From a virus (lineage: Duplodnaviria; Caudoviricetes): a stretch of 64,000 nucleotides of DNA. The notes below the pieces were generated by a model. It did not search any database and was not told the origin of the DNA. It saw only the letters and a list, made by a program, of their open reading frames with translations. Positions 19,101 through 58,200 of this stretch are shown here, in pieces; position 1 is the stretch's first letter, and the number at the start of each line of letters is the position of its first letter. The position numbers were made by a program, and so were the translations under genes. The DNA is taken from positions 1,605-65,604 of IMG/VR virus record IMGVR_UViG_3300025099_000001; one strand, 5' to 3'.

Positions 19101-22100
19101 TATTGAATTATTTGTTGCTACTATCTGTCCGTTATTATCTGTAAGGAAACTTATAGTTAAACCTGTACCTCCTGCAGGACTAACTGTAGTAGGTACATTA
19201 TTATATTGTTGATTAGGAGGAAATGCTCCTGGTGTCGCAATGCTTAAAGCATATTGTACCCTGTCATTAACTAAAACTTTATCAGTATTTTGTAAATATC
19301 CTTTTGCTGTTAAATTAACTGCATTATTAAACTGAACTAAGTTGTTTGCTTTTGTGACTACATTATCTCCTCCTGTATAGATTAATTCAAAATTATTTAA
19401 ACCATCTAAATTTATTGGAGCAGTTGCACCATAATTTGTTTGAGGTGCTGTATTTGTAAATTTAATTTCTGTATCACTAACTCTGTCTACATCTATCCCT
19501 GTACTTCCTGTAAAAGTAGTTTCTGTAAAATCATATTTTTGTGGAGTTTCAAAAACTATTTGAAGCTTAGGATCTGCATTAGATGGTACAGGACTACCTG
19601 TTTCTATTACTTTAGTTCTTAAATCAGAATTAGTATATGGCTTAGTAAATGATTGTATTGCCCCTGCTGCCGTAATAGTATCTACATTTAAAGAAACTCT
19701 GGTTGAAAGTGCAGGATATCCTAACGCCTCTTCAATATCTATAGTGTCATTTACTTGATATCCTTTTCCTGCAGAATAAACAGATAAATTAGATAATACT
19801 CCTGCTGTGTTAGTAGCTGTTATCATGCATCCTGAACCTGTAGCACTGTTAGTCGTAGTGCTAAAAGTAACAGGATAACCTACGTTATTCATTGTTTGAT
19901 AAAGAGAAGGAACTCCTGCATTAATACTAAATGTTGCTACACCGCCCGTTCCAATATCTGACTGACCCGAACCTTCTAAAGTTAATGCTCCCGTTAGAGT
20001 ATTTAAAGAATCTACTACAGTTCCCGCTACTGATGGAACACCCCATGTATTATCAGCACGTAAGTAATGCGTTAACATTGTTGTAGTATCTAAAGAACTT
20101 GTGTCTGCACTTAACCCTACTGTAAGCTCATTAAATGTAGATAAAGGATCGCTTAAGTCAAGAGAGATATAACTTTTATTTACCGCAGGTGCTCCTGCTA
20201 TAGTATCAACCTTTTCTACAAAGGTGATTGTGTTATTTGTAACATCTACCGTTCCTGTAAAACTTGCAGGGTTTGTTGCTAAACCAAAAGAAGTAATACC
20301 TGCCGCTGCAGTTGCAGCAATAGTGATAGAGTCAGCACCACTATCTGTAATAGAGATGTTTGCCCCTTCTACTATTTTTATTGTGTCTCTTACAGCACTT
20401 GCATTTACTAAAGATATGTCAGCTTCTGTAGGTGTTATTACCGTTACCGTTCCTGTTACCAAAGAACCAGGTGTACCACCATTTACTGTAAATGTATCTC
20501 CCACCGCATAACCTGTACCTGCTGCTACCACTGTAATACCATTTAAATCTATAGCACCACCTGTGTTGGTGTATGAAACTGTTAAATCGTTATTACCTGA
20601 TCCTGATGTAACCTGTGTTCCAACAGTTCCCGTTGCGGTATATCCTGCTCCTCCTGCGGGATTTGTTACAGTTGATGTAGTTCCAGCTGCATTTGCTGTT
20701 AGTGTGTATGGAGAGTCTGTTCCTGCTGTTATATTTGTTATTATACCATAATCATCTACAGTTACGGAGGCATTACTAAAAGTTCCTGAACTATAAGCTG
20801 TTTGAGTTGGTAAATCTATATCTATATCACCCGAACTTGTAATAGGACTTCCGCTAATTCCTATTGTAGAGTTAGTTGATGTCAATCCTACCGAAGTCAC
20901 TGTTCCTCCTGAAGCGTTAGATGATATAGTTAAATCATTATTGTTATCTAAATTTAAAGTAATACCTGAACCTTTGTCTATATTTACAGAACTTGTTCTA
21001 ACGGCATCAGTATTTTTTAAAGTTATTGTATTAGAATTTACTGAAGTAATTTCTAAAGTTCTTGGGGTAGTTGGTGGTACTCCAGTTATTATTGAAAGAA
21101 CATCTCCTACTGAATATCCTGAACCAGCAGCATTTAGAGTCATTGAATTTATAGTTCCCGAAGGACCTGTTTGTATATCAAAAGTAGCTCCTGAACCTCC
21201 CGCAGGTGTAACCGTTGTTGGAGTATTAGTTGAGGTGTTGTTGATTGGATAACCCGCACCACTGTTTAGGATTGTTGTTGTACTAACAGATCCCGTGGCC
21301 ACAAAACTTAAGTCCCAATCATTTCCTGCAGGTACTGTAAACCCTCCCGTTTGACCATAATATGTGCCTGATACTACTGCAACTACCGAGCTTACTGCAT
21401 CATTGTTTCCGCTTGTTATGGTATATGTGTCACCTTGTTGATATCCTATTCCAGGATTTGTAATAGCTACAATCTCATCTACACCTCCCAAACCATCAAC
21501 AGTTATCTGTACCTTCAAGCCTGTACCTGTGCTTGGTGAGATTGCTACAGTGTCAAAAACACCATTTGTATTATAACCTGTTCCAATTACTGATGGTGTG
21601 TCATTAATTAGACTAACAGGACCTCCTTGTACTAAATTATTAGTTACTAATGATGATGTAATAACAGGGTTTGCAGGTACAGTATTATCAATACCTGTGT
21701 TTACATAATTAGTATTTACAGAGCCAATACCTGTTAGCGTTCCTGATCCACCACCACCACCATTAGTTCCCCAAACAGGTGTGGCTCCAATTCCTTGAGA
21801 AATTAATACTTGACCAGCTGTACCTGCACTACCTTTTAATTGAAATTCACTAAAGTCTCCCCATAAATTAAAAGCTCCGTTTTGTGCCTGAATAATTCCT
21901 TCTGTAGGTGAAAGACCCACTGCTGCGTTACCAGTTACAGCTACTATTGCGTTTGTTCCTGTTGCTGCCGTTCCAGCTGAATTGTCTAATACGTTTTGTA
22001 ATGTCGGTGCTATTTGAGCATTAGACCATATTGGTGTTGCTGTTGTTCCTTGAGATAAAAGAACTTGTCCTGCAGTTCCTGCACTGCCTTTTAAACGTAA

Positions 22101-23018
22101 CTCCGAATAATCTCCTGCAATATCTAAAGCACCATTAGTAATTTTTAAAATACCTTTTGTTGTGGGTACTCCAGTATCTGCATCTCCTGTAATATTTACA
22201 AATCCTCCAAAATCAAATGTTACAGCATCACCAAAAGTTGATGTTGAAGTTCCTAAAAATGAAACACCTACATCTGTTGCTGTATTTCCTTGTGTTAATA
22301 CTTGTTGTAAAGTATGAGGTGTATTAGTTGGACCACTTGACCATTTTACTCCGCTTCCTGTTGATACAAGTGCTTGCCCCGCAGAACCTTTACTATAAAC
22401 AGGTGCTACAGGTGGAATTGTATTACCATCGTCTATAGATATACCTGTAGTCTGAGAAATTTTTAATGCTGTAGAATTAACAAGGTTAAAGTCACCTACA
22501 TTTACGTTTAAACTTCCTCCTACATTAATAGGTCCTGCCCAATTCAAACTTGTTAGTGTATCTCCCGATAAACTACCCGCAACATTTCCTGGTTGAGTAA
22601 TTGAAAAACTTCCGTCTTGTAAATTTAAATTTTGTGACGAAACGGTATTGCCTAAAGTTACTACCTCATCCCATGTTTGAGATCCTCCCGAAATAGTATC
22701 CCATGCAATTCCTGTTCCTGTAGATGTTAATACTTGTCCTGCAGCACCATGAGATCCTTGAGTACCTGCTGAAATTACAGTCGGGAATACATCAACAGCT
22801 GTTAGTATTCCCGTACCTGTAAGTGTTAAATTATTAGCGGCTGAGTTTCCAATGCTTAAAACTGATGTTAAGTCTTGAGCAACTCCACCACCACCTACTA
22901 TATCGCTAATTTTAAAAGTAACCGTCCTATTATTATCATTTACATCTGTTCCAATTATTAAATCAGAACCAGCGGGTGTAATAGTAGGATACGCTGATAC
23001 ATCAAATATTTTAGCCAT
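16107..23018 (-). CDS. Giant tail fibre/adhesin protein
   Basis: 2303 aa, Gly/Thr-rich; shaft repeats, eight GxGY...GxGYxxGD modules, C-terminal YadA-head-like (I/V)AIG repeats. Confidence 0.8.
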   Translation of the reverse strand: MAKIFDVSAYPTITPAGSDLIIGTDVNDNNRTVTFKISDIVGGGGVAQDLTSVLSIGNSAANNLTLTGTGILTAVDVFPTVISAGTQGSHGAAGQVLTSTGTGIAWDTISGGSQTWDEVVTLGNTVSSQNLNLQDGSFSITQPGNVAGSLSGDTLTSLNWAGPINVGGSLNVNVGDFNLVNSTALKISQTTGISIDDGNTIPPVAPVYSKGSAGQALVSTGSGVKWSSGPTNTPHTLQQVLTQGNTATDVGVSFLGTSTSTFGDAVTFDFGGFVNITGDADTGVPTTKGILKITNGALDIAGDYSELRLKGSAGTAGQVLLSQGTTATPIWSNAQIAPTLQNVLDNSAGTAATGTNAIVAVTGNAAVGLSPTEGIIQAQNGAFNLWGDFSEFQLKGSAGTAGQVLISQGIGATPVWGTNGGGGGSGTLTGIGSVNTNYVNTGIDNTVPANPVITSSLVTNNLVQGGPVSLINDTPSVIGTGYNTNGVFDTVAISPSTGTGLKVQITVDGLGGVDEIVAITNPGIGYQQGDTYTITSGNNDAVSSVVAVVSGTYYGQTGGFTVPAGNDWDLSFVATGSVSTTTILNSGAGYPINNTSTNTPTTVTPAGGSGATFDIQTGPSGTINSMTLNAAGSGYSVGDVLSIITGVPPTTPRTLEITSVNSNTITLKNTDAVRTSSVNIDKGSGITLNLDNNNDLTISSNASGGTVTSVGLTSTNSTIGISGSPITSSGDIDIDLPTQTAYSSGTFSNASVTVDDYGIITNITAGTDSPYTLTANAAGTTSTVTNPAGGAGYTATGTVGTQVTSGSGNNDLTVSYTNTGGAIDLNGITVVAAGTGYAVGDTFTVNGGTPGSLVTGTVTVITPTEADISLVNASAVRDTIKIVEGANISITDSGADSITIAATAAAGITSFGLATNPASFTGTVDVTNNTITFVEKVDTIAGAPAVNKSYISLDLSDPLSTFNELTVGLSADTSSLDTTTMLTHYLRADNTWGVPSVAGTVVDSLNTLTGALTLEGSGQSDIGTGGVATFSINAGVPSLYQTMNNVGYPVTFSTTTNSATGSGCMITATNTAGVLSNLSVYSAGKGYQVNDTIDIEEALGYPALSTRVSLNVDTITAAGAIQSFTKPYTNSDLRTKVIETGSPVPSNADPKLQIVFETPQKYDFTETTFTGSTGIDVDRVSDTEIKFTNTAPQTNYGATAPINLDGLNNFELIYTGGDNVVTKANNLVQFNNAVNLTAKGYLQNTDKVLVNDRVQYALSIATPGAFPPNQQYNNVPTTVSPAGGTGLTISFLTDNNGQIVATNNSIEVTNDGSGYNSSDVLQIAAASLTPAGTVDAFLNITSVTADKASYIEISQLADAVNTTSSWALNGDTGTANITDNSIVSLLGGDGLNVTVVAGTTNTATITGSVFTLGDGLTTNGVQGFVPGPLIADFGTNKFLKVNGTWALPVTSINTLTDGIELVGSGDITLGVSGVASVVTVLTNQGSGYALNGIYATTVAPSGGTGLTLKVTAVGAAGEAQQVSVYSAGQGYTANDVVTLIGQSSSGTANTTVFTLTADNTIVVSTTESADVYDIKMSESSLGVATDPNLTLTRTNINGSAIVADNIQVLGETGIKVARNSDNAVTISAMIDGSGDITIGESGVESLTGVIAGGTGYVVNKIYSTTSSISGAGATIKVTGVNGNVVTTGVIYSKGRGYAIGETLTLIGLGSGNNATFDVNTITDENRIQISNVQDLEDGVTSVNSLEGDIDIKSSGDIIIGINGVETLNNATLSGGTGYVADRTYRTTGGGGTGLTVLVTGVTVGGVPSAVSVFAKGQGYTSGAVTLIGQGSDGGCTINISTLTSANDIQVSSSLTDLSQFTNSPGYTAISGGTQYFLAKFNQLGTTVENSNFIDRPTGLKELQGIGPNATTNEHYQLLISGTGYIGLTTTAASNTVRLGSGYLGTENDGTAVDSVYVGYNSGESITDGYSNTFIGKGAGADITTGFETTYIGKSAGAGTNNTNSRRSVAIGALAAQNAYGDGDVFIGRSAGNGNTNVTASPGTAQLMERVAIGLNAMSGLVSGTTVLQGNNRYSVAIGAFAGNAPGSTATGPLVGFRTHIGYKAGANEQGQTNPADNSGQIAIGTYAMWNHTSFKRGAIAIGEKAYTDTINAAPVIQSSWDVSIGAYSFGANGSFYPEITGEGNIAIGYLAGTDSTQATSMAGGTIAIGKRSRALNIDTIAIGADAAAGGNNIDNAIAIGKSAIAAVQNSLVIGKGAEASGAGIYIGSSSNPIGNVVNSSAGTLLNYLPITIDGTAYKIPLGT

Positions 23019-34700: not shown

Positions 34701-35141
34701 ATGCCAAAGTCTACTCACAACTACCTAAAGTATTGGAGAGTTATACGTTATTGGGTAAAGGCTAAATACAATCTTACAACCCCTGATATAGAAATGATTC
34801 TATTTTTATATAGTGAAGAGTATTTTAATAAAACAAAGTTTAAAGAGTTTGAAGAATTAATGTCTTGGGATATAAAAAGATTTGATAGACTACTTAGGGA
34901 TGGGTGGATTCATGTATGGAGAAAAGGATATGGTAAACATACAACATTATACGAGCTTTCCTACAAAGGGAAGCGAGTAGCGAGTACAATTTATAAAAAA
35001 CTTAATGGTGAAGAGATAGCAGAGTCACCATCTATTAATCCTTTATTTAGAGCGGACGCTTCTTATATGGATAAGGTTTATAGAAATTCTATAAAAGAAC
35101 TTAATGAATTTATAAAACAACAACGATATCTCTCTCAGTAA
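34701..35141 (+). CDS. MarR-like winged-helix DNA-binding protein
   Basis: YNLTTPDIEMILFL..FDRLLRDGWI..LYELSYKGK pattern; only plus-strand gene in the late block. Confidence 0.65.
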   Translation: MPKSTHNYLKYWRVIRYWVKAKYNLTTPDIEMILFLYSEEYFNKTKFKEFEELMSWDIKRFDRLLRDGWIHVWRKGYGKHTTLYELSYKGKRVASTIYKKLNGEEIAESPSINPLFRADASYMDKVYRNSIKELNEFIKQQRYLSQ

Positions 35142-35367
35142 TAATAGTAAAAGTATCATTATGTATAAGCATACTAAAGCCAGCAGACTTATCATAATAA
35201 ATAATTTGACCTTCTTTGATTTCTGAGACATCAGTACCTGGTTTTATTACTTCACCTTTTTTATATCTAAACTCATCTGCATCTTCTGCAGTAAGTATTA
35301 ACCCTGACTTAGTTTTTAATTCTTCTTTTACAGGTTTTATTATAACATACTTGCCAATTGGTTTCAT
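35110..35367 (-). CDS. groES: Co-chaperonin GroES
   Basis: MKPIGKYVIIKP..KTKSGLIL..GEVIKPG..IKEGQIIYY..ITERDIVVVL. Confidence 0.9.
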   Translation of the reverse strand: MKPIGKYVIIKPVKEELKTKSGLILTAEDADEFRYKKGEVIKPGTDVSEIKEGQIIYYDKSAGFSMLIHNDTFTIITERDIVVVL

Positions 35368-35541: not shown

Positions 35542-35614
35542 GTTTCTCTATGTTTTTAATTATGTTGTTTGTTTCTGTTTTTACACCAAACAGTTTTAAA
35601 ATAAACTCTATCAT
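35522..35614 (-). CDS. 30-aa hypothetical peptide
   Basis: ATGA overlap with the groEL stop; MIEFILKLFGVK... Confidence 0.35.
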   Translation of the reverse strand: MIEFILKLFGVKTETNNIIKNIEKREEKKA

Positions 35615-37200
35615 GCTCTCATATTTGTTACAATAGCATTAGTGCTAAGTATAGTTGTTGCAACACTTACTGCATTAGTCAATGCGTTCTTTGTTACTTT
35701 CAGCGGATCAATAACACCCATCTCATACATATCTCCGTACTTATTATTCTTTACATCATAGCCGTAGTTATATTTTTTATCAAATACTTGGTCAATAACT
35801 TTATCATTATTTTTACCAGCGTTATTTAATATTTGTATAAGTGGTGAGCGAAGAGCTGATTCTAATATTAAGACAGCATCTTTCTCATCTTGGTTTTTGG
35901 TTTTGGCTTTTAACTTTAATGATTCTCTAAACAATGCTATACCTCCACCCGCTAATATACCTTCTTCAAGTGCTGATCTTACTGCACACACTGAATCATC
36001 TACTCTGTCATACTTTTCTTTTTGTTCCATCTCAGAGTTACCCCCTACATAAATACAACCTATAGCACCCGCTAAACTTGCTATACGTTCTTTTATAAAT
36101 TCTTTAGTAGACTTATCTTTTGTGTTTTTTTGTTGAACTTTTAATTCAGCAATTCTATCGTTTAACTCTGGTGTGTTATTGTCTTTTTTAAATATTACAG
36201 TTGAATGCTCTCCTGCAATAACTTTATCTGCACTACCTAAGTCATTAGGCATAATTAAACTTAAATCATCACCAGTCTTCTCTGAATAATATTTAGCACC
36301 AACTGACATAGCAATATCTTGCATAAGTTCATGTTGCTTGTATCCAAACTGAGGAGGAGCTATATTACAAAACTTTAAACCATTACGAACTACGTTAGCC
36401 GCTAAAGTATTAATAACATTAGTTGAGCAAGGGGCAATGATTAACAGTTTGTCTCCGTTGTTTATTACAGGCTTTAACACGTTCTCTATTTGAAGTATGC
36501 TATTAATTTCTGCATCGCAAACTAAAATCTTAACATCTTCAAGTATACACTCATCTTTCTTTTGATTATTTATAAATAAATTAGAAGACCAACCTCTTGC
36601 TATTTTTATACCGTTAGTAACCTCAGCATAGGTTTCAGATGTCATAGACTTTTCTACAGTTACCATTCCGTTTATTCCAACTTGTGTATAGGCATCTTTA
36701 ATTATTTTACCTATAGTCTTATCATTATTGGCAGAGATAGACGCAACGTCTAACAATCTTTCCTCTGTTACTTTTTTTGAATTACTTTTTAAATTAGATA
36801 TAATTTTAGATGCGTGATTGTTAATATGCCTAATAACTTCTGTTGTGTTTGACTCTGATGTTAATGTTTGCTGACCAGCTTTAACCAAAGCTTCTGTTAG
36901 AACAATAGCTGTTGTTGTCCCATCACCTGCAGACTGAGCTGTACGGCTTGAAGCTTCCTTCATCATCCTAACTGCTAAGTTTTCTATAGGATCATTTAAA
37001 AACACAGACTCAGCAACTGTTACACCGTCCTTAGTAACTGTCATGCCTGAAGTATGATTTGGTGATTCTAATAACACAGTCTTACCTAAAGGTCCTAATG
37101 TACTTTTGACTGCTTTGGAAATTTTAGTAATTCCTGTAATTAATTTCTGACGAGCTTCATCATCAAAGCTAAGCGTCTTTGGTATATAACCTTGTTCCAT
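35611..37200 (-). CDS. groEL: Chaperonin GroEL (phage-encoded)
   Basis: TLGPLG, VTKDGVTVA, AGDGTTTA, GILAGGG, GVIDPLKV motifs; lacks the GGM tail. Confidence 0.95.
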   Translation of the reverse strand: MEQGYIPKTLSFDDEARQKLITGITKISKAVKSTLGPLGKTVLLESPNHTSGMTVTKDGVTVAESVFLNDPIENLAVRMMKEASSRTAQSAGDGTTTAIVLTEALVKAGQQTLTSESNTTEVIRHINNHASKIISNLKSNSKKVTEERLLDVASISANNDKTIGKIIKDAYTQVGINGMVTVEKSMTSETYAEVTNGIKIARGWSSNLFINNQKKDECILEDVKILVCDAEINSILQIENVLKPVINNGDKLLIIAPCSTNVINTLAANVVRNGLKFCNIAPPQFGYKQHELMQDIAMSVGAKYYSEKTGDDLSLIMPNDLGSADKVIAGEHSTVIFKKDNNTPELNDRIAELKVQQKNTKDKSTKEFIKERIASLAGAIGCIYVGGNSEMEQKEKYDRVDDSVCAVRSALEEGILAGGGIALFRESLKLKAKTKNQDEKDAVLILESALRSPLIQILNNAGKNNDKVIDQVFDKKYNYGYDVKNNKYGDMYEMGVIDPLKVTKNALTNAVSVATTILSTNAIVTNMRA

Positions 37201-37220
37201 TGTATTAAATTTAATTTGAA

Positions 37221-37228
37221 CAAATATA
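37221..37228 (-). promoter_or_regulatory. Bacteroidota -7 element for groEL
   Basis: TATATTTG 20 nt upstream of the groEL ATG. Confidence 0.6.
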
Positions 37229-37249
37229 ATAAATTAATTGTAATATCAC

Positions 37250-37449
37250 ATTCCAGCATTCCAAAGAAATTTTATTTTTTTTATATAAATATATTTAAAC
37301 GTATATACTTTATTATTATTTATTTTTTTTTAACGTACCTAAGTATGGAATAAATAAAGAATATATAGTTAAATAGTTGAAAATCAAAAAGTTAGAAAAA
37401 TTAAAGTTTGGAATATCGTTGGAATATCGTTGGAATATGAAGGAATATC
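37250..37449. repeat. Origin-like region: TTGGAAT iterons, IHF-consensus site, AT-rich segment
   Basis: 11-bp tandem TTGGAATATCG x2, TTGGAATATGA and AGGAATATC (37408-37449); inverted ATTCCA x2 (37250-37264); AATCAAAAAGTTA at 37382. Confidence 0.6.
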
Positions 37450-37463
37450 TCTGGTTTTTGTAT

Positions 37464-37489
37464 AAAAAAAGAGGAGACTAAGCTCCTCT
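37464..37489 (-). terminator. Rho-independent terminator
   Basis: AGAGGAG/CTCCTCT stem with a U-run on the minus strand, after the 37516 gene. Confidence 0.7.
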
Positions 37490-37515
37490 AATTTCAAAAC
37501 AAACAAATTAAATTT

Positions 37516-37713
37516 TTAGTATTCGTATATATTACGATCACCATCCATACGCATTTTAGCTCTTTCAATACCGTCAGCGATACAGTCTATCTTATATTGT
37601 TTTTTCATTTGTTGTCTCATCATTGACGCTCTCTCAATACCTGACACACCATCTGGGCGTTCATTTATTAAGCGACCATCTTTTATAGTTAGGCCTTGAT
37701 AGTTATTGTTCAT
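37516..37713 (-). CDS. Small hypothetical protein
   Basis: Likely start MNNNYQGLTIKDGRLINERP at 37713; own promoter-like TATCTTTA and terminator. Confidence 0.6.
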   Translation of the reverse strand: MNNNYQGLTIKDGRLINERPDGVSGIERASMMRQQMKKQYKIDCIADGIERAKMRMDGDRNIYEY

Positions 37714-38219
37714 AGTATGATTTTTTTGTAAAGATAATAAATTTTTATTAGACATTTAGGGGTTGAGGGTTCTACATACTTATACGCATAACTACTGCTT
37801 ACGGAAACGGAGTTTTTTTTATTGGGGGGGTTGTATTTTGTTTTGATTTTTGTGGAATTTTTTGTCTTTTACTTTCACCCCACACGCACACGCACTGCCC
37901 ACTCACGTACGCACAGACATATATATGATGCGTTCTAACGCACTAACTCAAATCGGAGCTCCACCTTCCCTTACTCACTTGCAAAGTAGAAGAGAGAGGA
38001 AGAGACTTCCCTTAACGACAGTCCGACACACTCACACACTAAACAAATCACACCGACAGACATCACACAATATATTCACTATCAATATCTTATTAGAGAA
38101 CTTTAATTATTTTATTTATACTAATACATTAAAAGAAAAAGATAGTCCTTTAGAACGCATTAAACACCTCTAAATATCAAAATCCAGAATCAACCCAAAA
38201 AAAATCCGACATCACTTTA

Positions 38220-38251
38220 TTTGCATATTTATTAAGTATTTAGTATCTTTA
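38220..38251 (+). promoter_or_regulatory. Early promoter (TTTG-N20-TATCTTTA)
   Basis: Bacteroidota -33/-7 geometry; similar sites at about 40995-41026 and 43430-43461. Confidence 0.55.
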
Positions 38252-38297
38252 TATTAATAATAACAGAGGGTAACACCTCACTTAAAAAACAAACAAA

Positions 38298-38975
38298 ATG
38301 AACACAAAATCGTTAATCGGACTTACGAATCAGAAATCATCTGATATCGTATCACAGTGGAGTAATCAGTATTTAAATGCTGACTTTAGTATTACAATGT
38401 TGAATAAGGTATCCACTAAATTAGAGTGTGACGATAAGGTACAAGTTGTACTATTTATCAAATATTGTCAAGCATTTAACATTAGACTTGATTCTTGTCG
38501 CACTCAAAATAAAATAGGTAATCCATACACGGCATTCAGTCAAATATTATGGATAGCAAAATTTGGTGATGGAGTTGCTACTCGCCAACTGACTCACGCA
38601 CTCAAAGAATTATGGAAAGGTAATGCAGATGTAATCAAAAACTGCAAACAAATGGGTGGTAGTTTTGTGTCATCATTATTTGAGGGTGATATTGATTCAT
38701 CATTCAGCTACGCAGACAATGGTAACAAACGTGCATTGATTCAAGGATTCTGTGATGATAACAACAGAGATGAACAAGAAATGCAAAAGGTGTTAAGTAA
38801 CTATCAAGATGAAGAAATGTATTTCAATTATTGGATGCATAGTGGTAATGTTGTTGAGAATGTTGATGGTAGTTTTTCAACTCAAGATGCCCAATACAGA
38901 AACAAGTTTGTAAGTATTGAACAACTAAAAAACTATTACAATAAAGAATTTGCATATTGGAATTTAGTTAAATAA
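38298..38975 (+). CDS. Early hypothetical protein
   Basis: 225-aa ORF, first plus-strand gene, AAACAAAATG leader. Confidence 0.7.
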   Translation: MNTKSLIGLTNQKSSDIVSQWSNQYLNADFSITMLNKVSTKLECDDKVQVVLFIKYCQAFNIRLDSCRTQNKIGNPYTAFSQILWIAKFGDGVATRQLTHALKELWKGNADVIKNCKQMGGSFVSSLFEGDIDSSFSYADNGNKRALIQGFCDDNNRDEQEMQKVLSNYQDEEMYFNYWMHSGNVVENVDGSFSTQDAQYRNKFVSIEQLKNYYNKEFAYWNLVK

Positions 38976-38987
38976 AACCAACTCACT

Positions 38988-39042
38988 CCACGTGCCTCAA
39001 TGCTAATCGCATTGGGGTTTTCGTGGTAGAGGACTAATCCTC
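38988..39042 (+). ncRNA. Conserved intergenic RNA hairpin, copy 1
   Basis: CCACG-TG-CCTCAATGC-TAATC-GCATTGGGG-TTTT-CGTGG-TAG plus small GAGGA/TCCTC hairpin. Confidence 0.65.
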
Positions 39043-39063
39043 GCAAAATTAAAATCAAACAAA

Positions 39064-39528
39064 ATGAACTTAGAACAATTTAAAAACATAGATAAATATA
39101 AAGTAACTAATTTAAGTAATGCAATTGATAATGCAATTGATGTATCATTTAGTCAAATGATTGACACAGTAAGAACTCAATGTTATATGTCACAGAAACA
39201 AGATAGTTGGGAAGACTGTGATGAATTAGAATTTCTTGAAGACATTCCAATGTTATTCACTGATGGTAGAGATATCAAAGAGTCAATTAAAAATCAAATG
39301 AAACGTGTAGTTATATCAGCACTAACTGATTCAGATTGGGTAGGTAAGAATGATGCAATGTACCAACATTTACCTTCTGATATTGAAGATAGACTACATA
39401 AAAATTCTGATGAATATCAATCACAATTTGAGACTGAGACAGAAAGACTTGAACGTGAAGATGAAGAAGAATATGATATTAGTCCAAATGGAAAATCTAA
39501 ACCATCTGATTCTTTTGGCTGGAAATAA
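39064..39528 (+). CDS. Early acidic hypothetical protein
   Basis: 154 aa, Asp/Glu-rich. Confidence 0.7.
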   Translation: MNLEQFKNIDKYKVTNLSNAIDNAIDVSFSQMIDTVRTQCYMSQKQDSWEDCDELEFLEDIPMLFTDGRDIKESIKNQMKRVVISALTDSDWVGKNDAMYQHLPSDIEDRLHKNSDEYQSQFETETERLEREDEEEYDISPNGKSKPSDSFGWK

Positions 39529-39548
39529 ATTTTGATCATAAGAAATTT

Positions 39549-39590
39549 CCACGTGCCTCACTACTAATCGTAGTGGGGATTTCGTGGTAG
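39549..39590 (+). ncRNA. Conserved intergenic RNA hairpin, copy 2
   Basis: CCACG-TG-CCTCACTAC-TAATC-GTAGTGGGG-ATTT-CGTGG-TAG. Confidence 0.65.
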
Positions 39591-39618
39591 AAAACAAATA
39601 ATAATTAAATTAAATAAA

Positions 39619-40263
39619 ATGAAAAAGACAGTAAAAAAACTTGTGATGAAGGCAATGAGAATGCCTCACATACATCACATCAATAAACAAGGTAATGCAA
39701 TTGTTAGAAAAAAAGAGTTGCAACACATGATATGTCAAGCACAGAAAATGATTGAACATAAAAATAAACCTCTTGGTGAAAATTCAGATTCAGTAACTGA
39801 AAAAACTGATGACAATGGTAATATATACTACACTCATTCAACAGGATTTTATAATGTAACAATTGGAAAATGGGTTGATGAAGGTTTGTTGACTCGTAGC
39901 AAGGAAAATGGATATAAATTAACAGAGTTAGGTAGATTATTTGCATCCACAGATACACGTGCATATGAGATTGATAAGTGGAAACGTAAATTCAAATTAG
40001 AAAAGGCACGTGCTGATAGATTAAATTCTCACACTAATGATTTGTTAATTCAGAAAAGAAAATTACAAGACAGAATTGATGAGATTTATTTTGGAAAAGA
40101 ATTTATGGATTCAGATGACAAAGGTAGTTTACAAGAATATTTTGTTACAGATGAATGTGAATCTATTGTGACATCATCACCACCAAATTCAATCATCAAC
40201 ACTTGCTTAACTAATATGCAAGAAAGTTTAAATTGCATAACACAACATATTAATAAAGAATAA
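39619..40263 (+). CDS. Early protein with winged-helix-like motif and coiled coil
   Basis: IGKWVDEGLLTRSKENGYKLTELGR resembles a wHTH wing. Confidence 0.55.
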   Translation: MKKTVKKLVMKAMRMPHIHHINKQGNAIVRKKELQHMICQAQKMIEHKNKPLGENSDSVTEKTDDNGNIYYTHSTGFYNVTIGKWVDEGLLTRSKENGYKLTELGRLFASTDTRAYEIDKWKRKFKLEKARADRLNSHTNDLLIQKRKLQDRIDEIYFGKEFMDSDDKGSLQEYFVTDECESIVTSSPPNSIINTCLTNMQESLNCITQHINKE

Positions 40264-40280
40264 TTTTGTTTGTTTTTGTT

Positions 40281-40337
40281 CCACCAACCTCACTGTTAGT
40301 CGCAGTGGGGATTTGGTGGTAGTGGGCAATAGTGCCT
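40281..40337 (+). ncRNA. Conserved intergenic RNA hairpin, copy 3
   Basis: CCACC-AA-CCTCACTGT-TAGTC-GCAGTGGGG-ATTT-GGTGG-TAG plus GGCA/TGCC hairpin. Confidence 0.65.
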
Positions 40338-40355
40338 TAATTAAATTACAAACAA

Positions 40356-40655
40356 ATGAAAAAATTAACTGACACAACTGATATGCTTAATGAAGTATAT
40401 AGAGTTGTACTTAATCACTATGTTGCAATTGGTAGAGATAATTCAAAAACTATTTTTGATAAGATAGATGATTTGCAAAGAACAATAAAAAATAGTATTG
40501 CTATCATTCCTATTCAAGATTATGAACTCACTGATTCTGGAAATTTAAAATTATTTAGAAACGGAGTTTTGTTTAATACTTATTATGATGTAGATAGTAT
40601 TGCACAAGCTAAAATAATAATTGATGATGAAAATAAAAAACTTGGTTATGAATAA
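40356..40655 (+). CDS. Early hypothetical protein
   Basis: 99-aa ORF with A-rich leader. Confidence 0.65.
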   Translation: MKKLTDTTDMLNEVYRVVLNHYVAIGRDNSKTIFDKIDDLQRTIKNSIAIIPIQDYELTDSGNLKLFRNGVLFNTYYDVDSIAQAKIIIDDENKKLGYE

Positions 40656-40851
40656 AATAGAGATAGAAAGAAATGATGTGATTAGATTCACAGAAGTTAC
40701 TCCAAATAATTTTTGGACAATAAAATGGGAACGTGGAAGTGGATACGCATATAAAGATAAAAGTGATGCTTGTATTGGACACGTTAATAAAGATTGGTTG
40801 CTTTGGATGATTAAAAAAGGAAGTGCAGAGTTAATCAAGGCAAAATCATAA
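40648..40851 (+). CDS. Early hypothetical protein
   Basis: Likely start MNKIEIER overlapping the previous stop. Confidence 0.6.
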   Translation: MNKIEIERNDVIRFTEVTPNNFWTIKWERGSGYAYKDKSDACIGHVNKDWLLWMIKKGSAELIKAKS

Positions 40852-40859
40852 AATAATTT

Positions 40860-40907
40860 AAGGCACGATTTCGTATCTAAAAAGATATGATGTCGTGTCT
40901 TTTTTTT
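40860..40907 (+). terminator. Rho-independent terminator closing the first early operon
   Basis: Long interrupted stem AGGCACGA..TCGTATCT/AGATATGA..TCGTGTCT followed by a T-run. Confidence 0.75.
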
Positions 40908-40914
40908 GTCCTAT

Positions 40915-40975
40915 GGACTTACGAGCTCTATGGACTTACGAAAAAAAATACAAAAAGATCCGTAGGGACTTACGA
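40915..40975 (+). repeat. Cluster of three GGACTTACGA direct repeats
   Basis: Copies at 40915, 40932 and 40966, between a terminator and a promoter. Confidence 0.8.
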
Positions 40976-41055
40976 TAAATTAAAAGCCATTTCATTAGGT
41001 TATTAAGTATTTATTATGTATTTTTACCAAAGTTATTAATTAAATTTACTTACAA

Positions 41056-41283
41056 ATGAATACAAACTATGGGACATACGACTATTTATTGTCACCAAAC
41101 AATAATATAGTTGTTCATTATGAGCTGTATGAACAGCCAGAATCTGAAGACAGAATAACTCCTGAAAGAAAAGAAATTATAATAAACAAATTAATTCTTC
41201 ACGGTGATGAAGTGCAGGATGAATTAGAAGGTTTGTTAGAAAATATTCAATCTGATATGGAATTAAATTACGAGAAATTATGA
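41056..41283 (+). CDS. Hypothetical protein
   Basis: 75-aa acidic ORF downstream of a promoter-like site. Confidence 0.6.
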   Translation: MNTNYGTYDYLLSPNNNIVVHYELYEQPESEDRITPERKEIIINKLILHGDEVQDELEGLLENIQSDMELNYEKL

Positions 41284-41393
41284 AGGATATAAAATTTTGG
41301 ACAGCTCTTAAGAGACAAGCATTAAAGAGTGGAGATATAATGTATGCAATACATTGTGATAAAATGATTTATGAACTTAAAAATAAAAAATAA
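41280..41393 (+). CDS. Small hypothetical protein (37 aa)
   Basis: ATGA-coupled; MKDIKFWTALKRQALKSGDIMYAIHCDKMIYELKNKK. Confidence 0.5.
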   Translation: MKDIKFWTALKRQALKSGDIMYAIHCDKMIYELKNKK

Positions 41394-41397
41394 AAAA

Positions 41398-42153
41398 ATG
41401 AAAGTATTAGAATTATTTAGTGGTAGCCGTTCTATTGGAAAGGTTGCTGAAGAAAAAGGACACGAAGTATTTTCTGTAGATGCTATAGGTTACCCAAACA
41501 CAGATTGGGTTGGAGATATTTTAGATTGGGACTACAGACTTAATGAAATGAATGTAGGTGAGTTAGATGAGCTTTGGATACCCGATGTAATATGGGCATC
41601 GCCACCTTGCACAGATTTTTCAGTAGCTTGTATAGGTAAAAAATGGGTAAGTGGACACGAGTACCAACCAAGAGATCCTGAGCTCTTAGGTATAAAAATT
41701 TTCAATCAAACATTAGAAATTATAGCAACGTATTTAGAAAAAAATCCTAATCTTGTTTGGTACATAGAGAATCCACGTGGAAAGATGAGAAAGTCTCCAG
41801 AATGGGCTAATCTTCAACACGTTAGACAAACTGTGTCATACTGTTCTTACGGTGATTCACGAATGAAGCCAACTGACATATGGACTAATGCTTTAAATTG
41901 GAAACCAAAGCCATTATGTAAAAACTACAAGTACGATGCTGATGGTAATATAATAAATAGACACTGTCATCACGAGGCATCACAAAGAGGAGAGACAGTT
42001 AGGAAACTTAGAGAGAGAGGTATAGATGCTAAGAAAGGAGGTACGGAGTCACTTAAAAATAATCATGAACGTAGTAAGATACCAAGAGAGTTATGCGAAG
42101 AGATAGTTGATAATATGCTTTTTGAATACGAGGGGAGCCTACTACCATTTTAA
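41398..42153 (+). CDS. DNA cytosine-C5 methyltransferase (short phage type)
   Basis: Motif I LELFSGS, catalytic WASPPC, motif VI IENP; likely start at 41398. Confidence 0.85.
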   Translation: MKVLELFSGSRSIGKVAEEKGHEVFSVDAIGYPNTDWVGDILDWDYRLNEMNVGELDELWIPDVIWASPPCTDFSVACIGKKWVSGHEYQPRDPELLGIKIFNQTLEIIATYLEKNPNLVWYIENPRGKMRKSPEWANLQHVRQTVSYCSYGDSRMKPTDIWTNALNWKPKPLCKNYKYDADGNIINRHCHHEASQRGETVRKLRERGIDAKKGGTESLKNNHERSKIPRELCEEIVDNMLFEYEGSLLPF

Positions 42154-42174
42154 TAATCAAATCAATAATAAATT

Positions 42175-42315
42175 ATGGAAGAAAAACTAAAAACTTATAA
42201 ATGTATAGAACACGGAGAGATATTTTATATAGATGCAAAAAATATGGAACAAGCAATAGAATTTGCATTAATGTATGGTGGAAGTGTAATTAGAGAAGTT
42301 AAATCAAATAAATAA
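42175..42315 (+). CDS. Small hypothetical protein (46 aa)
   Basis: MEEKLKTYKCIEHGEIFYIDAKNMEQAIEFALMYGGSVIREVKSNK. Confidence 0.55.
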   Translation: MEEKLKTYKCIEHGEIFYIDAKNMEQAIEFALMYGGSVIREVKSNK

Positions 42316-46985: not shown

Positions 46986-47030
46986 TAGTAAAAGGGAGGG
47001 GAAGATATTTCTTTCCCTCTTTTTTTACTA
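46986..47030 (+). terminator. Rho-independent terminator
   Basis: GAGGGGAAGA/TCTTTCCCTC stem with T-run. Confidence 0.65.
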
Positions 47031-51939: not shown

Positions 51940-52201
51940 ATAAAGATTGTTTTAGTTTTTCTTGGATTTCCAGTATTTCAGCACACTTTTCATACTCTTC
52001 AGTATAGATAAAATAATTAATAAGCTCACCATATATAGGGTCGTTGTGTCTTAATTTTTCTTTATTAGGATCATGTAAAAACCATAACTCATCCTCTGTA
52101 TCTAAAAAATCTATTAAACTTCTTTTCCCTGTAATTAGTTCATAGGTGTTGTTAAAACACTTGTCTTCATCAAAATTATTCTTCTCCATATATTTGCTCA
52201 T
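51932..52201 (-). CDS. Small protein with UVR-like C-terminal motif
   Basis: YFIYTEEYEKCAEILE resembles a UVR motif. Confidence 0.55.
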   Translation of the reverse strand: MSKYMEKNNFDEDKCFNNTYELITGKRSLIDFLDTEDELWFLHDPNKEKLRHNDPIYGELINYFIYTEEYEKCAEILEIQEKLKQSLFN

Positions 52202-55200
52202 ACATTTCAGGGTTAGTACGTTTCATTTCTGACTTACTCATTTTCTTACTACTATTTTTTAATTTTTTATTTTCTTGTATTTGCCGATACAAATCAGGAT
52301 TAGTTTGTTTTATATACTTCATATCTTCAGAACTATAAGCAGTCCCTGTTCCTGGACGATAGGACGGGCTAATACCAAATATATCATAAAATGCTTCGTT
52401 CTTGTCCTTACCTTGTCCTGCAAAATAATTATACATTCCTACAAAAGGATCAACCTGTGCTCCTAATAAAATCTCTACTAATGGCCTTAGACTTTTATCA
52501 ACTCTTCCATCTTTTAATCCTTTATTTACTTTTCTCATAACAGACTTGATAGGATTTACAACATCATCAGCATATCCTGAAGACTTACCTAAAGCTCTGT
52601 TTCTTGTTTCTTGTACTGCTGCACCAAAAAAAGGTATTTGATAAAGTAAGTTTAAACCATACATAGCTTCTTTTAATCTGTCCATAGCTTCTTCTTCGTC
52701 TTTATCATTACCCATAAATTTAAACATATTTGCTGCCAAAGCAAACATTACGTTAGCACCTGCAAAGTTTAAAACAAAAGCTCTTATGTCTTGTCTTCTT
52801 GGGGCTTTTTTACGAAATATAGCTCCCATAATATTACTTGTAGAACTCATAACTTTATTTATTTGTAAAAACAACGTACTACCAAACATAGTAAAAGCTC
52901 TTGTCATTTCATTTTGACTTTGCTGTAAAGGAATTTTATCTGTCTCTCTTCTTGACTGCTGAGTTGCATTATAATTATTAAAAGCTTCAGCCGCTTTAGC
53001 TTTGGACATTCCATTTGCAATATTAGCTTCGTAATTTACCATATAACCCATGACACCCATAATATCTCCCATTACCGTAGGCATAGCTGCACCTTTTTGA
53101 AACAGTGTAATAATTTTATTTTTAAAAGCTTTATAATCTTTTTCATTCAAAGCTTGTCTTAAATCTTTAATTCTTCTTTCAATTGGAGCTGTAGTTCTAC
53201 TTCCTGTTTCCAATCTGTATAAGTCTCCTTCTAATCCTTTACGCAAACGGTCTCTAAAGTCTGGAGATATTTCTTGTGCCAATTTCATGTAGTAAGGCAG
53301 CCTTGCAACAACTTTAGCCATACCAATCATAAAACCACCTGCACCACCCTTACCTTTATATTCTTCAAAGGCATTAACAAAAGATGTTGATTGTTTTAAT
53401 AATTGAATTGCTTTAAATGATAAAGCAAAACCTGTAAATTTACGTTGCAGTTTTGCAAGAACACCTTGATCCTTTACTCCCATAGATGGGTTTATAGCTA
53501 AATTTACTGATTCGTTTACTCTATCAGCAATACCTAAACGTGTTAGTAAAGTATTTACAGCAGGAACATTAAAAACTGCTTGTAAATTTTTTACTCCTAA
53601 TGCATAAGCCTTATATCTTTCCATTTGTGCAACATGGTTTTCTAAAGTTTCTACAAAATCAGGACCTGGATCTATTTCTCCAAACTCGTCTGTTCTTTCT
53701 TTTAATGACGGAGCAGTCTCAGCACTAAATACTTTTGAAAAATTACCACCCTTTATTAAATCTTGAGTTACATTTGAAGCTGATATACTTTTTGTAGGAA
53801 AATAGTTTTCTACAAAACCTAAATCAGTATAGTTAGCTTGTTTATATATATTGTTTATACTATTAAAGTAATCTGTACTTAACCAGTTTACAATTTTATC
53901 TACAAACTCTACAGCATCTGTTCCTATGGCTCCTTCTATTTGTGATATTTGATATTGGCCGAATCCTGAGTTTTCTAATTTTATTCTTTGAGTTTCGTTT
54001 TTACTTAAAGCGTATATTCTCATTAACTGTGTAACACTAAATACTTCTTGTGCTTTCCCTGTGGCTTTATTAATATATTTTGTATCTCCAAAGTCTATTT
54101 TTACAGGCTCAAATGGTAATTTTTGTTTTAAATCTTGATAGCTTTCTATACCTTCAATACTTGCGGCAATAGAATTTATCATTGTCTGTGCATTATAATA
54201 TCCTCTCAAGGCTTTAGTATGCATTCTATTTAATCCTTGATAAACAGTATCGTAGAAAAATGTATTTTTTAAATTTACATTATCTAAAATATTCATTAGA
54301 GTTCCTAAATGAGAAAGTCTGTTTCGTAAATAAGCACGTATACCTACTGTAGATGTAAATTTAAATTGATTAAAAAAGTTATTAATTTTACTTCTTGTGT
54401 CTCCTAAAAATCCTTCTTTATCTAAAGCATCAAAGTCTCTTTTATTTTTTAACTCTCCCTTACCATCATCATTAAACATTTCAGGATAGTTTTGTCTTAT
54501 TTGATTAGTTGCTGATTCAAAAATTTCATTATTAACTTCAGCTCGTTCTAATCTTGCCATATTTAACATAGCAATAGATTCTTTTTTAGCATCTTTCATT
54601 TTCTCTAATATATCAGTAACGGCCTCTAAGTCTAAGTTATATATATTATTAAATGTATCAAAAGCTAAAACACGAGCTAACAAGGTTTGTTCTCTTAAAG
54701 TAAGAGGTTCACCTCTTTTTTGTTTCTCTAATGTTATTTGAGTTTCTTGTTGATTAGAATCAATTAATGCAGAAATTGATAATAGCTTTTCTCCTCTGGA
54801 AACATTGTCTGGTGTCAAGGCAGCTTGTAACACTGATCTTACTTCTTTAAAAAATGCAACGCCTCCACCTTCTATGTTGGACGCTATTGGCCTTGATGAT
54901 TTAGTAGAAGCAGACTTGGCTAATTTACTAACCATAGCTTTTATCTCTTTAATCTTTTTTATCTTAACTTGTTTTCTTTTTCTTTCAACTGCGTTAAATA
55001 TTTTTTCACCTACAGACAAAATAGAATCAGGTCCTGCTGTTATAATTTTGTTTAGCATTCTATCTAATTCTGCCTTAGTAAACGTAGCTTCTTTTGGCAC
55101 GTACTTTCTAATTAATTGCTTTAACTGAAGTTGTATTTTTCTTAAATCTCTTTGTCCTTGTTTTTTTATAAACAAGTCTCTTTTCAAACGGCTAATACGT

Positions 55201-58200
55201 TTACTTATCTCTACACTTTGTACTTTACCTAACACACCTTTATAAGATATTTCTATGTTGTTTTGTATGTTTTTATCTTGTGCTTTAAATATGTCATTGT
55301 TTCTTAATATTTCAAAAGCTTTCTTTTCAGTTTGTATACGAGTAGCATCAGGCTTTTCTACTAAAAATTTATTTAACTCATATGATATTTGATTAAATAA
55401 AGTTTGACCTTCACTTATACCACCGTTTACTAATTGAAACTCCATTGGTATATCAGTAAAAGCTCCTTCTTTTTGTTCTAATGCAGCACGAGCTTCGTCT
55501 GTAGATAGTTTTCTGTTGTTGCGTAAATATTCAAATATAGCTGCCTCACTATAGTCTAATCCTCTTGCTTTAGCAACCACATCATTTATAGTATCTTGTT
55601 TGTTAAATATTCTTTTCTCTTGTGTTTCTCCTGTATACACTGATGTCTTGTCTGGTGCTTTATAACTACCCTCTACAACAGACACATTACGAACTGCGTA
55701 ATCTTTTCCTGATTTTTGCACAAGAACTTTACTTCCCGACTCTCTGTTTTGTGGTAAATGTAGTATTGGTTTACTACCGTCCTTTAATGATATATGAAAT
55801 GGATAGCTTGGGTGTGTATCTTTCTTGACTTCTACAGGACCATTAATTTCAACTATAGCATATATATCTCCCGTATTTAATCCTTTAGTTAATTTTTCAG
55901 CTGCCACTTGAGCAAGTAAGTCAACTAATGCTTGAGAACCAGGTTTTCCTGAAACTAATTTAGTTGTACCTTTACCAACTGATCTTGATTTGTCACCTCC
56001 TAAAAACTCAGCTATAGCAGCTTGGTCTTCTTTAGGTAGGTTTTTAGCTATTTCACCTACAATATCTTTAACCACAAATCCTCTTTTTTCAAACGTAGTA
56101 GTGTTTGGATTAGTAAAATATTTTTGTATATCAGTTTTTAAATCTCTGGCACTTTGTCTTAAATTTATAGTACCACCTGCTTTTTTTACAGCTGAAGAAA
56201 CTGCAGTTCTAAAATTAGATGCAGATATTAATTTTTTATCTAACATAGTATTTAGAATAGCTAAAGTAGAGTTAACACCTGAAGCACTACTGACTAATTT
56301 TGAGTCTGTTCCTTTTGTTAAAGTTAAAAAAGCCCTACCTCCATTTGCTTTTAATTGTTCATTTAATCCTCTCGCTATAGAGTTTGCTGTTCCTTTTTTT
56401 CCCGATGCCCAAACATCGCCAAATTTAGTTACAAAAAACACACCACCTTCTCCTTCAAAAATAACCTTACCATTAAACTTTATTTCACCTGCAAGCATAT
56501 CATCAGGAGATGTAATTACCGTTTCAAAACCTTCTAAGAAATTTACATTTTTAGGTTGAGTAACTAAACCTTTTTTAATCATTTCTGCAATACTATCTTG
56601 CTGGGTGTAGCTTACTTCAAACCCACCTACAACCATTGTTTTTAAAGCAGTTGATGGATTTTTTACTTCTTTACCACCTGCAAATAAATCAAGTTGTTTT
56701 ACATCTGACTTAGTAATTGTTTCTCCTGTTTGTACTTTACCTGCTACTACGTTTAATAAATCAATCAAAGCCTTATCAGTTCCAATAACATCTTCTGCTG
56801 TAAGCCCTAATAAATTACTTAGTTTGCTTATAAACCTTTTTATAATAGATTTTTGAGGTGCTTTTAAAGATGTATAGTTATTTGACAAATAACTAAAGAT
56901 TTCAGCCATATATTCTTCATTTGCATATGCTAATCTTGACGCATCATCTTTATTTCTTTCTTTATATAACGCAATATATTCGTCAATTTTCTTTTTTATT
57001 TCAGGGTCTAAATCAGCCTTTGCAAGAGCCTTCATCATTCTGTCTGTTAAAACTGCTATTTTACTTTCTGACCCTAATTTGTTTCTAAGTATAGCATGAA
57101 ATATTTCATGACTTAATACACGATCATTTGCAAGTTCAGCATTAATATGAATTACATTATCACCTCTAAAAACACCAGCAGACCTACCTTTTGGATTCCC
57201 AATAGCATTCATATAGTCTACCTCATTCTCATGTATTACTACCATCACATCAGGAAGTAATTTTTTTAATGCAGCTAAAGCTCTTTTAGCAGGTTTTATA
57301 AATTTTTCTGAGTTTATTCTTTTTGATTTGTCTGACTCGTTTACATAAGCGTTAGGTGCTATAGCTTTAAGTTCTTTTATTTTCGTTTTCTTTTGCGTGT
57401 CTTTTTTCTGTTGCTCAACTTTGTCTTTGACTTTCTTTCTGGTAGGCTTTTTACGTCCAGTGTTTCGTTTAGAAACTTTTGAAATAGGCTTGGCTTGTTT
57501 TTTGCCATCCACCTTAGTTGTGCTTTGCTTTGTAGTGGCATCGGGTTTAGTTTTTAATTCAGTTGGTGCTGTTAATTTAATAATACTTTTATCTAATACA
57601 ATAGTTTCAGGTGCTATAGGATTTGTAACCACAATAGCATCGTGGCCTGCTTCTATAATAGGTTTTAGTTTTTCTACTGTCCATACATCAGATTTTTCTA
57701 CTTTATACGGATTCTTTGGTGTAATTGTTGCTGTAAATTTATTACGAGTACCATCCGCTTTATACGTTCCTGCTCTATTAGCAGGACCAAAAAAGGCTAA
57801 GTTTGCAGGTGCAGGACCAAAAGTGGTATTGTTAGTGTTTTCAAAATCTAATGGTGCAAACAAATCTTGCTCAGACTCTTCACCGTATCTAATCATTGCC
57901 TCACCTTCATCTACTTTTTCTCCTACTACTTCTCCTTGTTCATTTGTAACTGTCTCTTCTGTATCTAATGCTACAGCTTCGGCTAAGTCTTGTGCTTCTT
58001 CTTTAGTTTCAGGAGTAGCTGTAATTTCTGTTTCTGTTTCTGTTTCTGTTTCAGCTACTTTTGCGGCAGCATCTCTTTTATCTTTTGCTACTAAATTTCT
58101 TGCATAAGCTCTTTCTTCTGAAGTAGCTGTATCAGTATTGGGTTTTAATTCTTTTAACTTTTTATCTATTTCTTCTTCAGTTATTTCTGTTTCTTCAACT

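Follow-up and report, generated by a model that had tools for sequence, protein, structure and literature searches.

The put site of phage HK022 consists of two obligatory stem-loops of ~65–70 nucleotides (nt), is present once per operon and acts on RNA polymerase (RNAP) in cis, and the nut site of lambda carries a conserved boxB loop that is read by the N protein. The N4 virion-RNAP promoter is a hairpin with a short stem and a 3-nt loop of fixed character, and it goes together with a giant virion RNAP gene. Phage T7 has RNase III sites in its early transcript; one of them, R1.1, folds from 60 nt into two helices with an asymmetric 4/5-nt internal loop and lies between early genes 1.0 and 1.1 (PMC6121014). 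In Bacteroidota, the primary sigma factor is unusual and Shine-Dalgarno sequences are not used, and initiation in Flavobacterium relies on A-rich leaders and on structure (PMC6847099). Very little has been learned so far of how the phages of these bacteria arrange their transcripts. Here we describe an element of about 42 nt found in three consecutive intergenic gaps of a 64,000-nt stretch of virus DNA (Duplodnaviria; Caudoviricetes), which we call the window; it comprises bases 1605–65604 of the 65.6-kb record IMGVR_UViG_3300025099_000001, a virus record with direct terminal repeats. Our results are best explained if the three copies belong to a family of structured, cis-acting RNAs that has not been catalogued before and whose carriers are uncultured phages that probably infect Bacteroidota. 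The motif is compact, common to phage lineages without a detectable common protein, and well suited to be entered as a new RNA family.

Structure and covariation of the element

A preliminary description of the window had reported three ~42-nt elements in three consecutive gaps, and we found all three exactly where it had placed them (Table 1). The pattern CCTCANNNNTARTCNNNNTGGGG gave three matches in the window, all on the + strand, where shuffled sequences lead one to expect 0.05, and a count of three was reached in 0 of 100 shuffles. In the entire 65.6-kb record the same pattern gave 3 forward, 0 reverse and 0 control matches. The three copies occupy the gaps A/B, B/C and C/D of co-directional open reading frames (ORFs), and RNA folding of these gaps reproduced the two-tier structure, with the z values listed in Table 1. 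Copy 1 has the basal helix CCACG/CGUGG, the apical helix CCUCAAUGC/GCAUUGGGG with ATGC/GCAT as its variable part, the loop UAAUC and the 3' internal loop UUUU. Copy 2 combines the outer stem CCACG/CGTGG with the apical part CUAC/GUAG and the loop TAATC, and copy 3 has the basal helix CCACC(AA)/(UU)GGUGG, the apical part CUGU/GCAG and the loop UAGUC. Common to all three inner 9-bp stems is CCTCA/TGGGG, whose third pair is T.G, and the last three nt of every copy are TAG. The architecture first proposed (outer stem, internal loop, 9-bp inner stem, UA(A/G)UC loop and terminal UAG) therefore holds for the window copies, but neither the loop nor the final G is family-wide. The small second hairpins after copies 1 and 3 and the hairpin in the leader of the first gene, which had also been reported, are all present; similar second hairpins lie 3' of some other family members and are missing from many, copy 2 included.

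For the search of relatives, an exact-pattern scan of IMG/VR returned 59 stretches, of which about 10 loci held a full look-alike by eye and the remainder were chance-like. A 16-nt pattern from the 3' half, TGGGGWTTTSGTGGTA, matched at least 119 IMG/VR stretches; the matches listed fell into two classes, an unrelated coding class with a W-G-F-R-G motif and genuine hairpin elements, and the genuine hairpins among these listed matches had quite different apical stems and loops. The coding class (for example IMG/VR loci L064, L066 and L068–L070) is large and unrelated to the family. A homologue search with a covariance model, as the preliminary description had proposed, was seeded with 8 copies and yielded 53 matches, 50 of them distinct, on 34 chosen sources, and it recovered extra copies that the patterns had missed in already known contigs. 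We also noted a weak look-alike at 25.4 bits, identical in 8 IMG/VR contigs (L008, L016, L017, L024, L035, L038, L053 and L062), which reads CCTCAAATT-TAGTC-GCTTTGGGG and then GTTTTTCGAGGTGG.

The consensus of the family is YCAC(S), 0–9 nt, R, CCUCAC, a variable tip, a loop of 4–8 nt, GUGGGG, W-U-U-U, (S)GUGGUA and N-A-A-R-N-C, over a length of ~45–55 nt. Its apical helix of 7–13 bp has a near-invariant base, CCUC/GGGG with the U.G pair, above which the tip and the loop are free to vary, and loop sequence and length are unconserved across the family. Directly 3' of this GC-rich stem base lies the bulge or internal loop W-U-U-U, in which UUU is invariant and preceded by A or U, and the near-invariant (S)GUGGUA then pairs with the CCAC-like upstream strand to form the basal helix. 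Around the junction, G-G-W-U-U is conserved in 50/50, 49/50, 50/50, 49/50 and 50/50 sequences, respectively. The element is followed by an occasional small second hairpin and then by the A-rich, Shine-Dalgarno-less leader of the next gene.

The compensatory stem changes noticed in the window copies proved to be real covariation on the 50 distinct homologues. In the 50-sequence alignment, 91.9% of cells are paired, compared with 77.3 ± 0.9% in shuffled alignments and 39–55% when the 3' partner is slid. Covariation is strong in the apical helix, where 97.4% of cells are paired and both sides have changed in 7 of the 9 pairs. The basal helix alone is paired in 82.4% of cells (73.9% when shuffled) and has 16 double-changed cells against 4.8 expected, a number matched in 0 of 500 shuffles; its variants include CCACG/CGUGG, CCACC/GGUGG, CCUAC/GUAGG and ACACG/CGUGU. 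With the partner slid by −3, pairing of the basal helix still reaches 65%, because UGG recurs 3 nt apart. Support for the basal helix is moderate and comes from the pairing and double-change test, the minimum free energy (MFE) test being non-discriminating. By our own sum over the pair table, G.U wobbles fill 93 of 665 cells, at which the opposite strand would have A.C mismatches, and the third apical pair is U.G in 46 of the 50 distinct sequences. This number of wobbles assigns the fold to the sense strand and upholds the earlier view of an RNA-level rather than a DNA structure.

Occurrence of the family

The elements match no Rfam family, and the preliminary description had not recognised a named RNA family in them either: Rfam 15 gave no match at the elements (window 37500–41500, E ≤ 10) and 0 matches on 10 carrier loci (36.7 kb, E ≤ 1). 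No prior description of the motif was found in the literature searched, and the Mu-gpT-DE motif is absent from the main text of PMC5737381. With covariance model R2, 33 of 33 carrier records were matched, each with 1–4 clustered copies; the six complete or near-complete carrier genomes have 3, 1, 1, 2, 2 and 1 copies. Forty instances of the element lie between ORFs of one strand and share their orientation, with the next ATG at most 41 nt away in 37/40 and the upstream stop at most 32 nt away in 31/40; the gaps with a more distant start or stop are, judged by eye, mostly occupied by short ORFs. In the window, the same-strand genes begin 24–30 nt 3' of the model match.

The carriers include one group of relatives of the window phage, which have GroEL/GroES and the replication module in common and in which the element is found among small early-type ORFs. 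In a second group, a single copy lies directly 3' of the major head gene and 5' of an ORF of ~50 aa; the head gene was assigned to phrog_10 (E 9e-38 and 6e-36) in the two loci checked, L011 and L106. Other carriers have arrays of small ORFs. Neither blastn with the region nor with two of the elements gave anything real among named phages, and R2 matched 0 of 5 named relatives (Flavobacterium elemoE, Maribacter Panino, Polaribacter Leef_1, Cellulophaga phi46:1 and MW202828). A pattern scan of bacteria with one genome per species gave 100 stretches, of which 10 rows in 8 loci were real by eye; their contigs, labelled Mucilaginibacter, Saprospiraceae, Parvicellaceae and others, look like prophages or have probably been mis-binned. 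R2 matched 4 of 151 genomes from one Bacteroidota order, with the seed genome included. Because of this rarity in the sampled host genomes, the element is not a normal host signal.

Possible functions of the element

No protein family was shared by more than three of the six complete or near-complete carrier genomes in BLASTP comparisons, which remote homologues could escape. Since the carriers share no protein family and the sampled host genomes rarely carry the element, a conserved host factor is favoured as the reader; most simply, either such a factor reads the element or the RNA needs no reader. The same comparison weakens one of the options raised in the preliminary description, namely that a phage RNA-binding protein binds here, and a boxB-like reading is weakened by loops that vary freely in sequence and size, so that the functional options first listed have been narrowed but not decided. 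RNase E/G and RNase III domains are each present in 5/5 Bacteroidota genomes examined. The motif may give a handle on the conserved host factor that is exploited, be it an RNase, RNA polymerase or the ribosome.

We tentatively favour the view, to which we give somewhat less than an even chance, that the element is an intercistronic signal for mRNA processing and stabilisation, and we leave the choice of enzyme aside. The cut, by a conserved host endoribonuclease, would fall within or at the internal loop on its U-rich 3' side. The candidates are an enzyme of the RNase III type, for which the two stacked helices (14 bp in the consensus model, 5 basal and 9 apical) would be the substrate, and one of the RNase E/G type, which would cleave at GG|WUU. 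After the cut, the upstream cistron would keep the apical hairpin as a 3' cap with a GC-based end, and the downstream cistron would be freed with its own leader, which in copies 1 and 3 starts with a small hairpin resembling the one in the leader of ORF A. In this way, the stability and yield of neighbouring genes would be uncoupled, as with the RNase III sites of the T7 early transcript. In support, the elements are internal to their gene block, and a canonical hairpin with a T8 run comes only after the fifth ORF. The invariant G-G-W-U-U agrees with RN|WUU, the core motif of RNase E (PMC5222698). The copy behind the major head gene also fits a 3' stabiliser, because a stabiliser at that place would raise capsid mRNA. 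The element may also serve as a natural cistron insulator in Flavobacterium or Bacteroides genetics.

Several points weigh against processing. Four RNA runs yielded only contigs of relatives, in which no transcript ends were seen, and no run was listed as covering 37200–42200. Usual RNase III substrates are longer than 14 bp, with about two turns of double-stranded RNA, a length that the Bacteroidota enzyme may or may not require, and the strict sequence conservation seen here is unusual for RNase III sites. As for RNase E/G, the RN|WUU motif is short, common and of low information, and its G-G is base-paired next to a loop of just 2–4 nt, which makes access uncertain. With 1–4 copies per genome, the element is not a general punctuation of all operons. 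The structural evidence has weak sides too: the alignment had been fitted to the model, and in the basal MFE test at least 5 nt of the tail were paired upstream in 43/50 sequences, whereas shuffled 5' flanks averaged 37.2 and went as high as 44. Finally, GTGGTA was part of the pattern that first found most members, so that its conservation is partly a matter of ascertainment; most of the model-only copies inspected retain GUGGUA.

As an alternative to processing, the element could signal to RNAP, either through pausing or leaky termination (attenuation), with graded expression of the operon as the outcome, or by put-like action in cis on the host enzyme, and we regard this as possible though rather unlikely. 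The preliminary description had argued from the lack of a U-tail that the elements are not terminators; in fact, the invariant UUU follows the GC-rich stem base directly, and in UUUUGGUG, the most frequent tail, 5 of 8 residues are U. The UUU is short beside the T7–T8 runs of the clear terminators of the window phage, and a terminator scan (at least 5 T in 8) called none of the three window copies. That they are no canonical terminators stands, the operon having its own hairpin and T8 run (Table 1). Attenuation would suit sites after the major head gene and between early genes, and a host machine as the reader agrees with the lack of a common phage protein. However, some of the bases that covary in the basal helix would not yet have left RNAP at termination, and for this reason read-through RNA is what is under selection. 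For put-like action, which needs a terminator downstream, the canonical one lies 3' of the three copies with further genes beyond it, and two adjacent hairpins are found at copies 1 and 3; on the other hand, the second hairpin is absent from copy 2 and many other members, and three copies within 1.4 kb exceed what a put-like loader needs. We consider it unlikely that the element is instead a site for a sequence-specific RNA-binding protein, of host or phage, that governs translation or coupling of the downstream cistron in mRNAs lacking Shine-Dalgarno sequences. Invariant nucleotides in a defined frame (CCUC/GGGG with its U.G, WUUU and GUGGUA-N-AA), the near start codon and the dependence of Flavobacterium initiation on structure and A-rich leaders (PMC6847099) would suit such a site, but the six carriers offer no common phage protein. 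Translational control through a leader-masking long-range helix was tried and rejected: a helix between the U/G-rich 5' tract and the A/C-rich leader is striking in copy 3 and in locus L058, yet over 46 instances the mean was −4.16 kcal/mol for cognate and −4.32 kcal/mol for non-cognate flanks (permutation p ~0.71). Pairing with, or mimicry of, the 3' tail of 16S rRNA (GGAACACCUCCUUU) is not supported either; GGUG could pair with CACC, but 11 of 50 sequences have C there, compensated in the 5' strand.

The element might also be chiefly a mobile or recombinogenic regulatory cassette, like the PeSLs described for T4-type phages (PMC2839356, PMC4122927), that persists through the exchange of small genes. 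In L012 and L058, islands of 43–67 nt at 97–98% identity do lie within flanks that cannot otherwise be aligned, blocks of homology to L026 and L050 begin or end within ~40 nt of elements (block edges 38974, 39523 and 40361), gene D is absent from L050 right after copy 3, and the window phage encodes Erf and an exonuclease. Recombination alone, however, leaves the compensatory changes, the fixed U.G and the sense-strand bias unexplained, and the element contains no host-type promoter: TAHHTTTG occurs 79 times in the window against 75 expected, inside no copy, and only copy 3 has one nearby, 13 nt upstream (40261–40268). We judge the cassette view improbable as the main explanation; since the islands coincide with homology break points between related phages, the elements probably double as recombination joints as a side effect, and they mark joints for the swapping of small early genes between phages. 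A DNA-level signal, such as an N4-like hairpin promoter for an injected virion RNAP or a double-stranded operator, is very improbable. The elements do stand 5' of genes, and two giant ORFs of unknown function (2553 and 2303 aa) occur in the window phage. A virion RNAP among these was sought and rejected: neither has a Pfam match or a meaningful match to PDB sequences, and PHROGs gave one family of unknown function only. Moreover, the free-sequence loops of 4–8 nt and the stems of 7–13 bp do not suit such a promoter, no ORF exceeds 1151 aa in 4 of the 6 complete or near-complete carriers, the element occupies a late position in one group, where it follows the major head gene, and an operator does not need variable yet complementary stems. 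We give little credence, finally, to a view in which the RNA seizes a conserved Bacteroidota host machine without any phage protein, through put-like antitermination or as a ribosome-loading or insulating device that replaces the Shine-Dalgarno site for internal cistrons; CCUC/GGGG with its U.G, UUU and GUGGUA would then form the contact surface.

Setting in the window and comparison with described systems

Judged by the primase/helicase, the nearest named relatives of the window phage are the uncultured podovirus MW202828 (66.8% amino-acid identity) and phages of Flavobacterium, Polaribacter, Maribacter and Cellulophaga. Genes run leftward from ~37200 and rightward from 38298, and early status of the element-bearing operon is plausible from this gene layout. 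Family searches with ORFs A–D gave nothing informative. Genes on the + strand continue 3' of the terminator that closes the block, where three 'GGACTTACGA' direct repeats are followed by replication and recombination genes (methyltransferase, DnaA-C-like helix-turn-helix protein, Erf, exonuclease, primase/helicase and helicase). These repeats, CTATGGACTTACGA at 40911–40924 and 40928–40941 and GTAGGGACTTACGA at 40962–40975 (range 40911–40975), lie between the operon terminator and the next + strand gene (41056), where they probably serve as operators for a regulated promoter that drives the replication module. Upstream of ORF A, a candidate host-type promoter is weak and only a lead, its exact motif not being enriched in the window.

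Table 1 Features of the window discussed in the text.
Feature	Position	Strand	Remarks
Element copy 1	38988..39029	+	42 nt; covariance model R1 76.3 bits; fold z = −5.9
Element copy 2	39549..39590	+	42 nt; R1 78.1 bits; fold z = −3.6
Element copy 3	40281..40322	+	42 nt; R1 69 bits; fold z = −4.8
Small second hairpin after copy 1	39029..39042	+	GAGGA-CUAA-UCCUC
Small second hairpin after copy 3	40324..40337	+	GGGCA-AUAG-UGCCU
Small hairpin in leader of first gene (ORF A)	38266..38279	+	GAGG-GUAACA-CCUC; z = −2.8
Five co-directional ORFs A–E with the elements in between	38298..40851	+	
ORF A	38298–38975	+	225 aa
ORF B	39064–39528	+	154 aa
ORF C	39619–40263	+	214 aa
ORF D	40356–40655	+	99 aa
ORF E	~40674–40851	+	~59 aa, called by eye
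Canonical intrinsic terminator closing the ORF A–E block	40862..40907	+	Long hairpin 40862–40899, then T8
Candidate host-type promoter	38220..38251	+	TTTG, 20 nt, TATCTTTA; one mismatch to the −7 consensus TANNTTTG (PMC6847099)
GroEL-like chaperonin, phage-encoded	35611–37200	−	Kept in 8 related loci
GroES-like chaperonin, phage-encoded	35110–35367	−	Kept in 8 related loci
Ordinary hairpin and T-run terminator, internal standard	46993–47018	+	
Ordinary hairpin and T-run terminator, internal standard	37489–37470	−	
Giant ORF	52176–59837	−	2553 aa; one PHROG of unknown function across residues 130–609
Giant ORF	16107–23018	−	2303 aa; no Pfam match

Further observations concern the region to the left of the block. 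Just past the terminator of a leftward 79-aa gene, four tandem copies of GGAATAT(C/G) with 10–11 nt spacing are present at 37410–37451 (GGAATATCGTT twice, then GGAATATGAA and GGAATATCTC), which from their sequence look like an iteron or operator array. The stretch 37760–38200 is C/A-rich and holds no convincing gene, its sole ORF (37850–38173) having a TTG start; positions 38000–38072 are 89–94% identical in L012 and L058 despite differing flanking genes, and contigs from runs labelled metatranscriptomic span 37335–38156. This stretch may specify a non-coding RNA or may act as an origin or in regulation. In MW202828, an ORF of ~3860 aa was found at the place corresponding to a giant ORF of the window.

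Among the described systems, two hold little in common with the element. Its loops of 4–8 nt are variable, in contrast to those of the N4 hairpin promoter, and most of the complete or near-complete carriers lack a giant ORF; unlike lambda nut (boxA/boxB), the element has an unconserved loop sequence and length and its carriers have no protein in common. We set the early promoters of the crAss-like phage phi14:2 aside as not relevant, since according to a preprint its early transcripts have no shared motif upstream. With intrinsic terminators and attenuators, the element shares U residues immediately after the base of a GC-rich hairpin, but it has just 3–4 U, the conserved G-rich strand behind them pairs with sequence further upstream, and it is operon-internal rather than at the end of a unit, the true T7–T8 terminators lying elsewhere in the window phage. 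It resembles RNase E/G sites in that its G-G-W-U-U at the stem/loop junction agrees with RN|WUU (PMC5222698), although the site is enclosed by helices and not in an open AU-rich stretch.

Like HK022 put, the element is a phage-borne stem-loop RNA in a presumably early operon upstream of terminators, with no phage protein needed and a conserved host machine as the would-be reader; in contrast to put it is reiterated, and a second hairpin accompanies copies 1 and 3 but is lacking from copy 2 and many other members. The PeSLs of T4-type phages are likewise repeated intergenic stem-loops by small ORFan genes in plastic early regions (PMC2839356), and both kinds of element occur at break points of indels and replacements. 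A PeSL, however, has a host sigma-70 promoter and an effective terminator stem, whereas the present element has no host promoter motif and 1–4 copies compared with ~50 PeSLs. The closest documented parallel is the group of early RNase III sites of T7. The element, at ~42–52 nt and 14 bp in the consensus, is smaller than the 60-nt R1.1, its sequence is far more conserved across unrelated phages, its carriers are of the Bacteroidota type and its cleavage is putative. Nevertheless, like R1.1 and its companions, it lies between cistrons of one putative transcription unit at successive gene junctions, and it has two stacked helices and an asymmetric internal loop without a long U-run, with a separate terminator that ends the operon.

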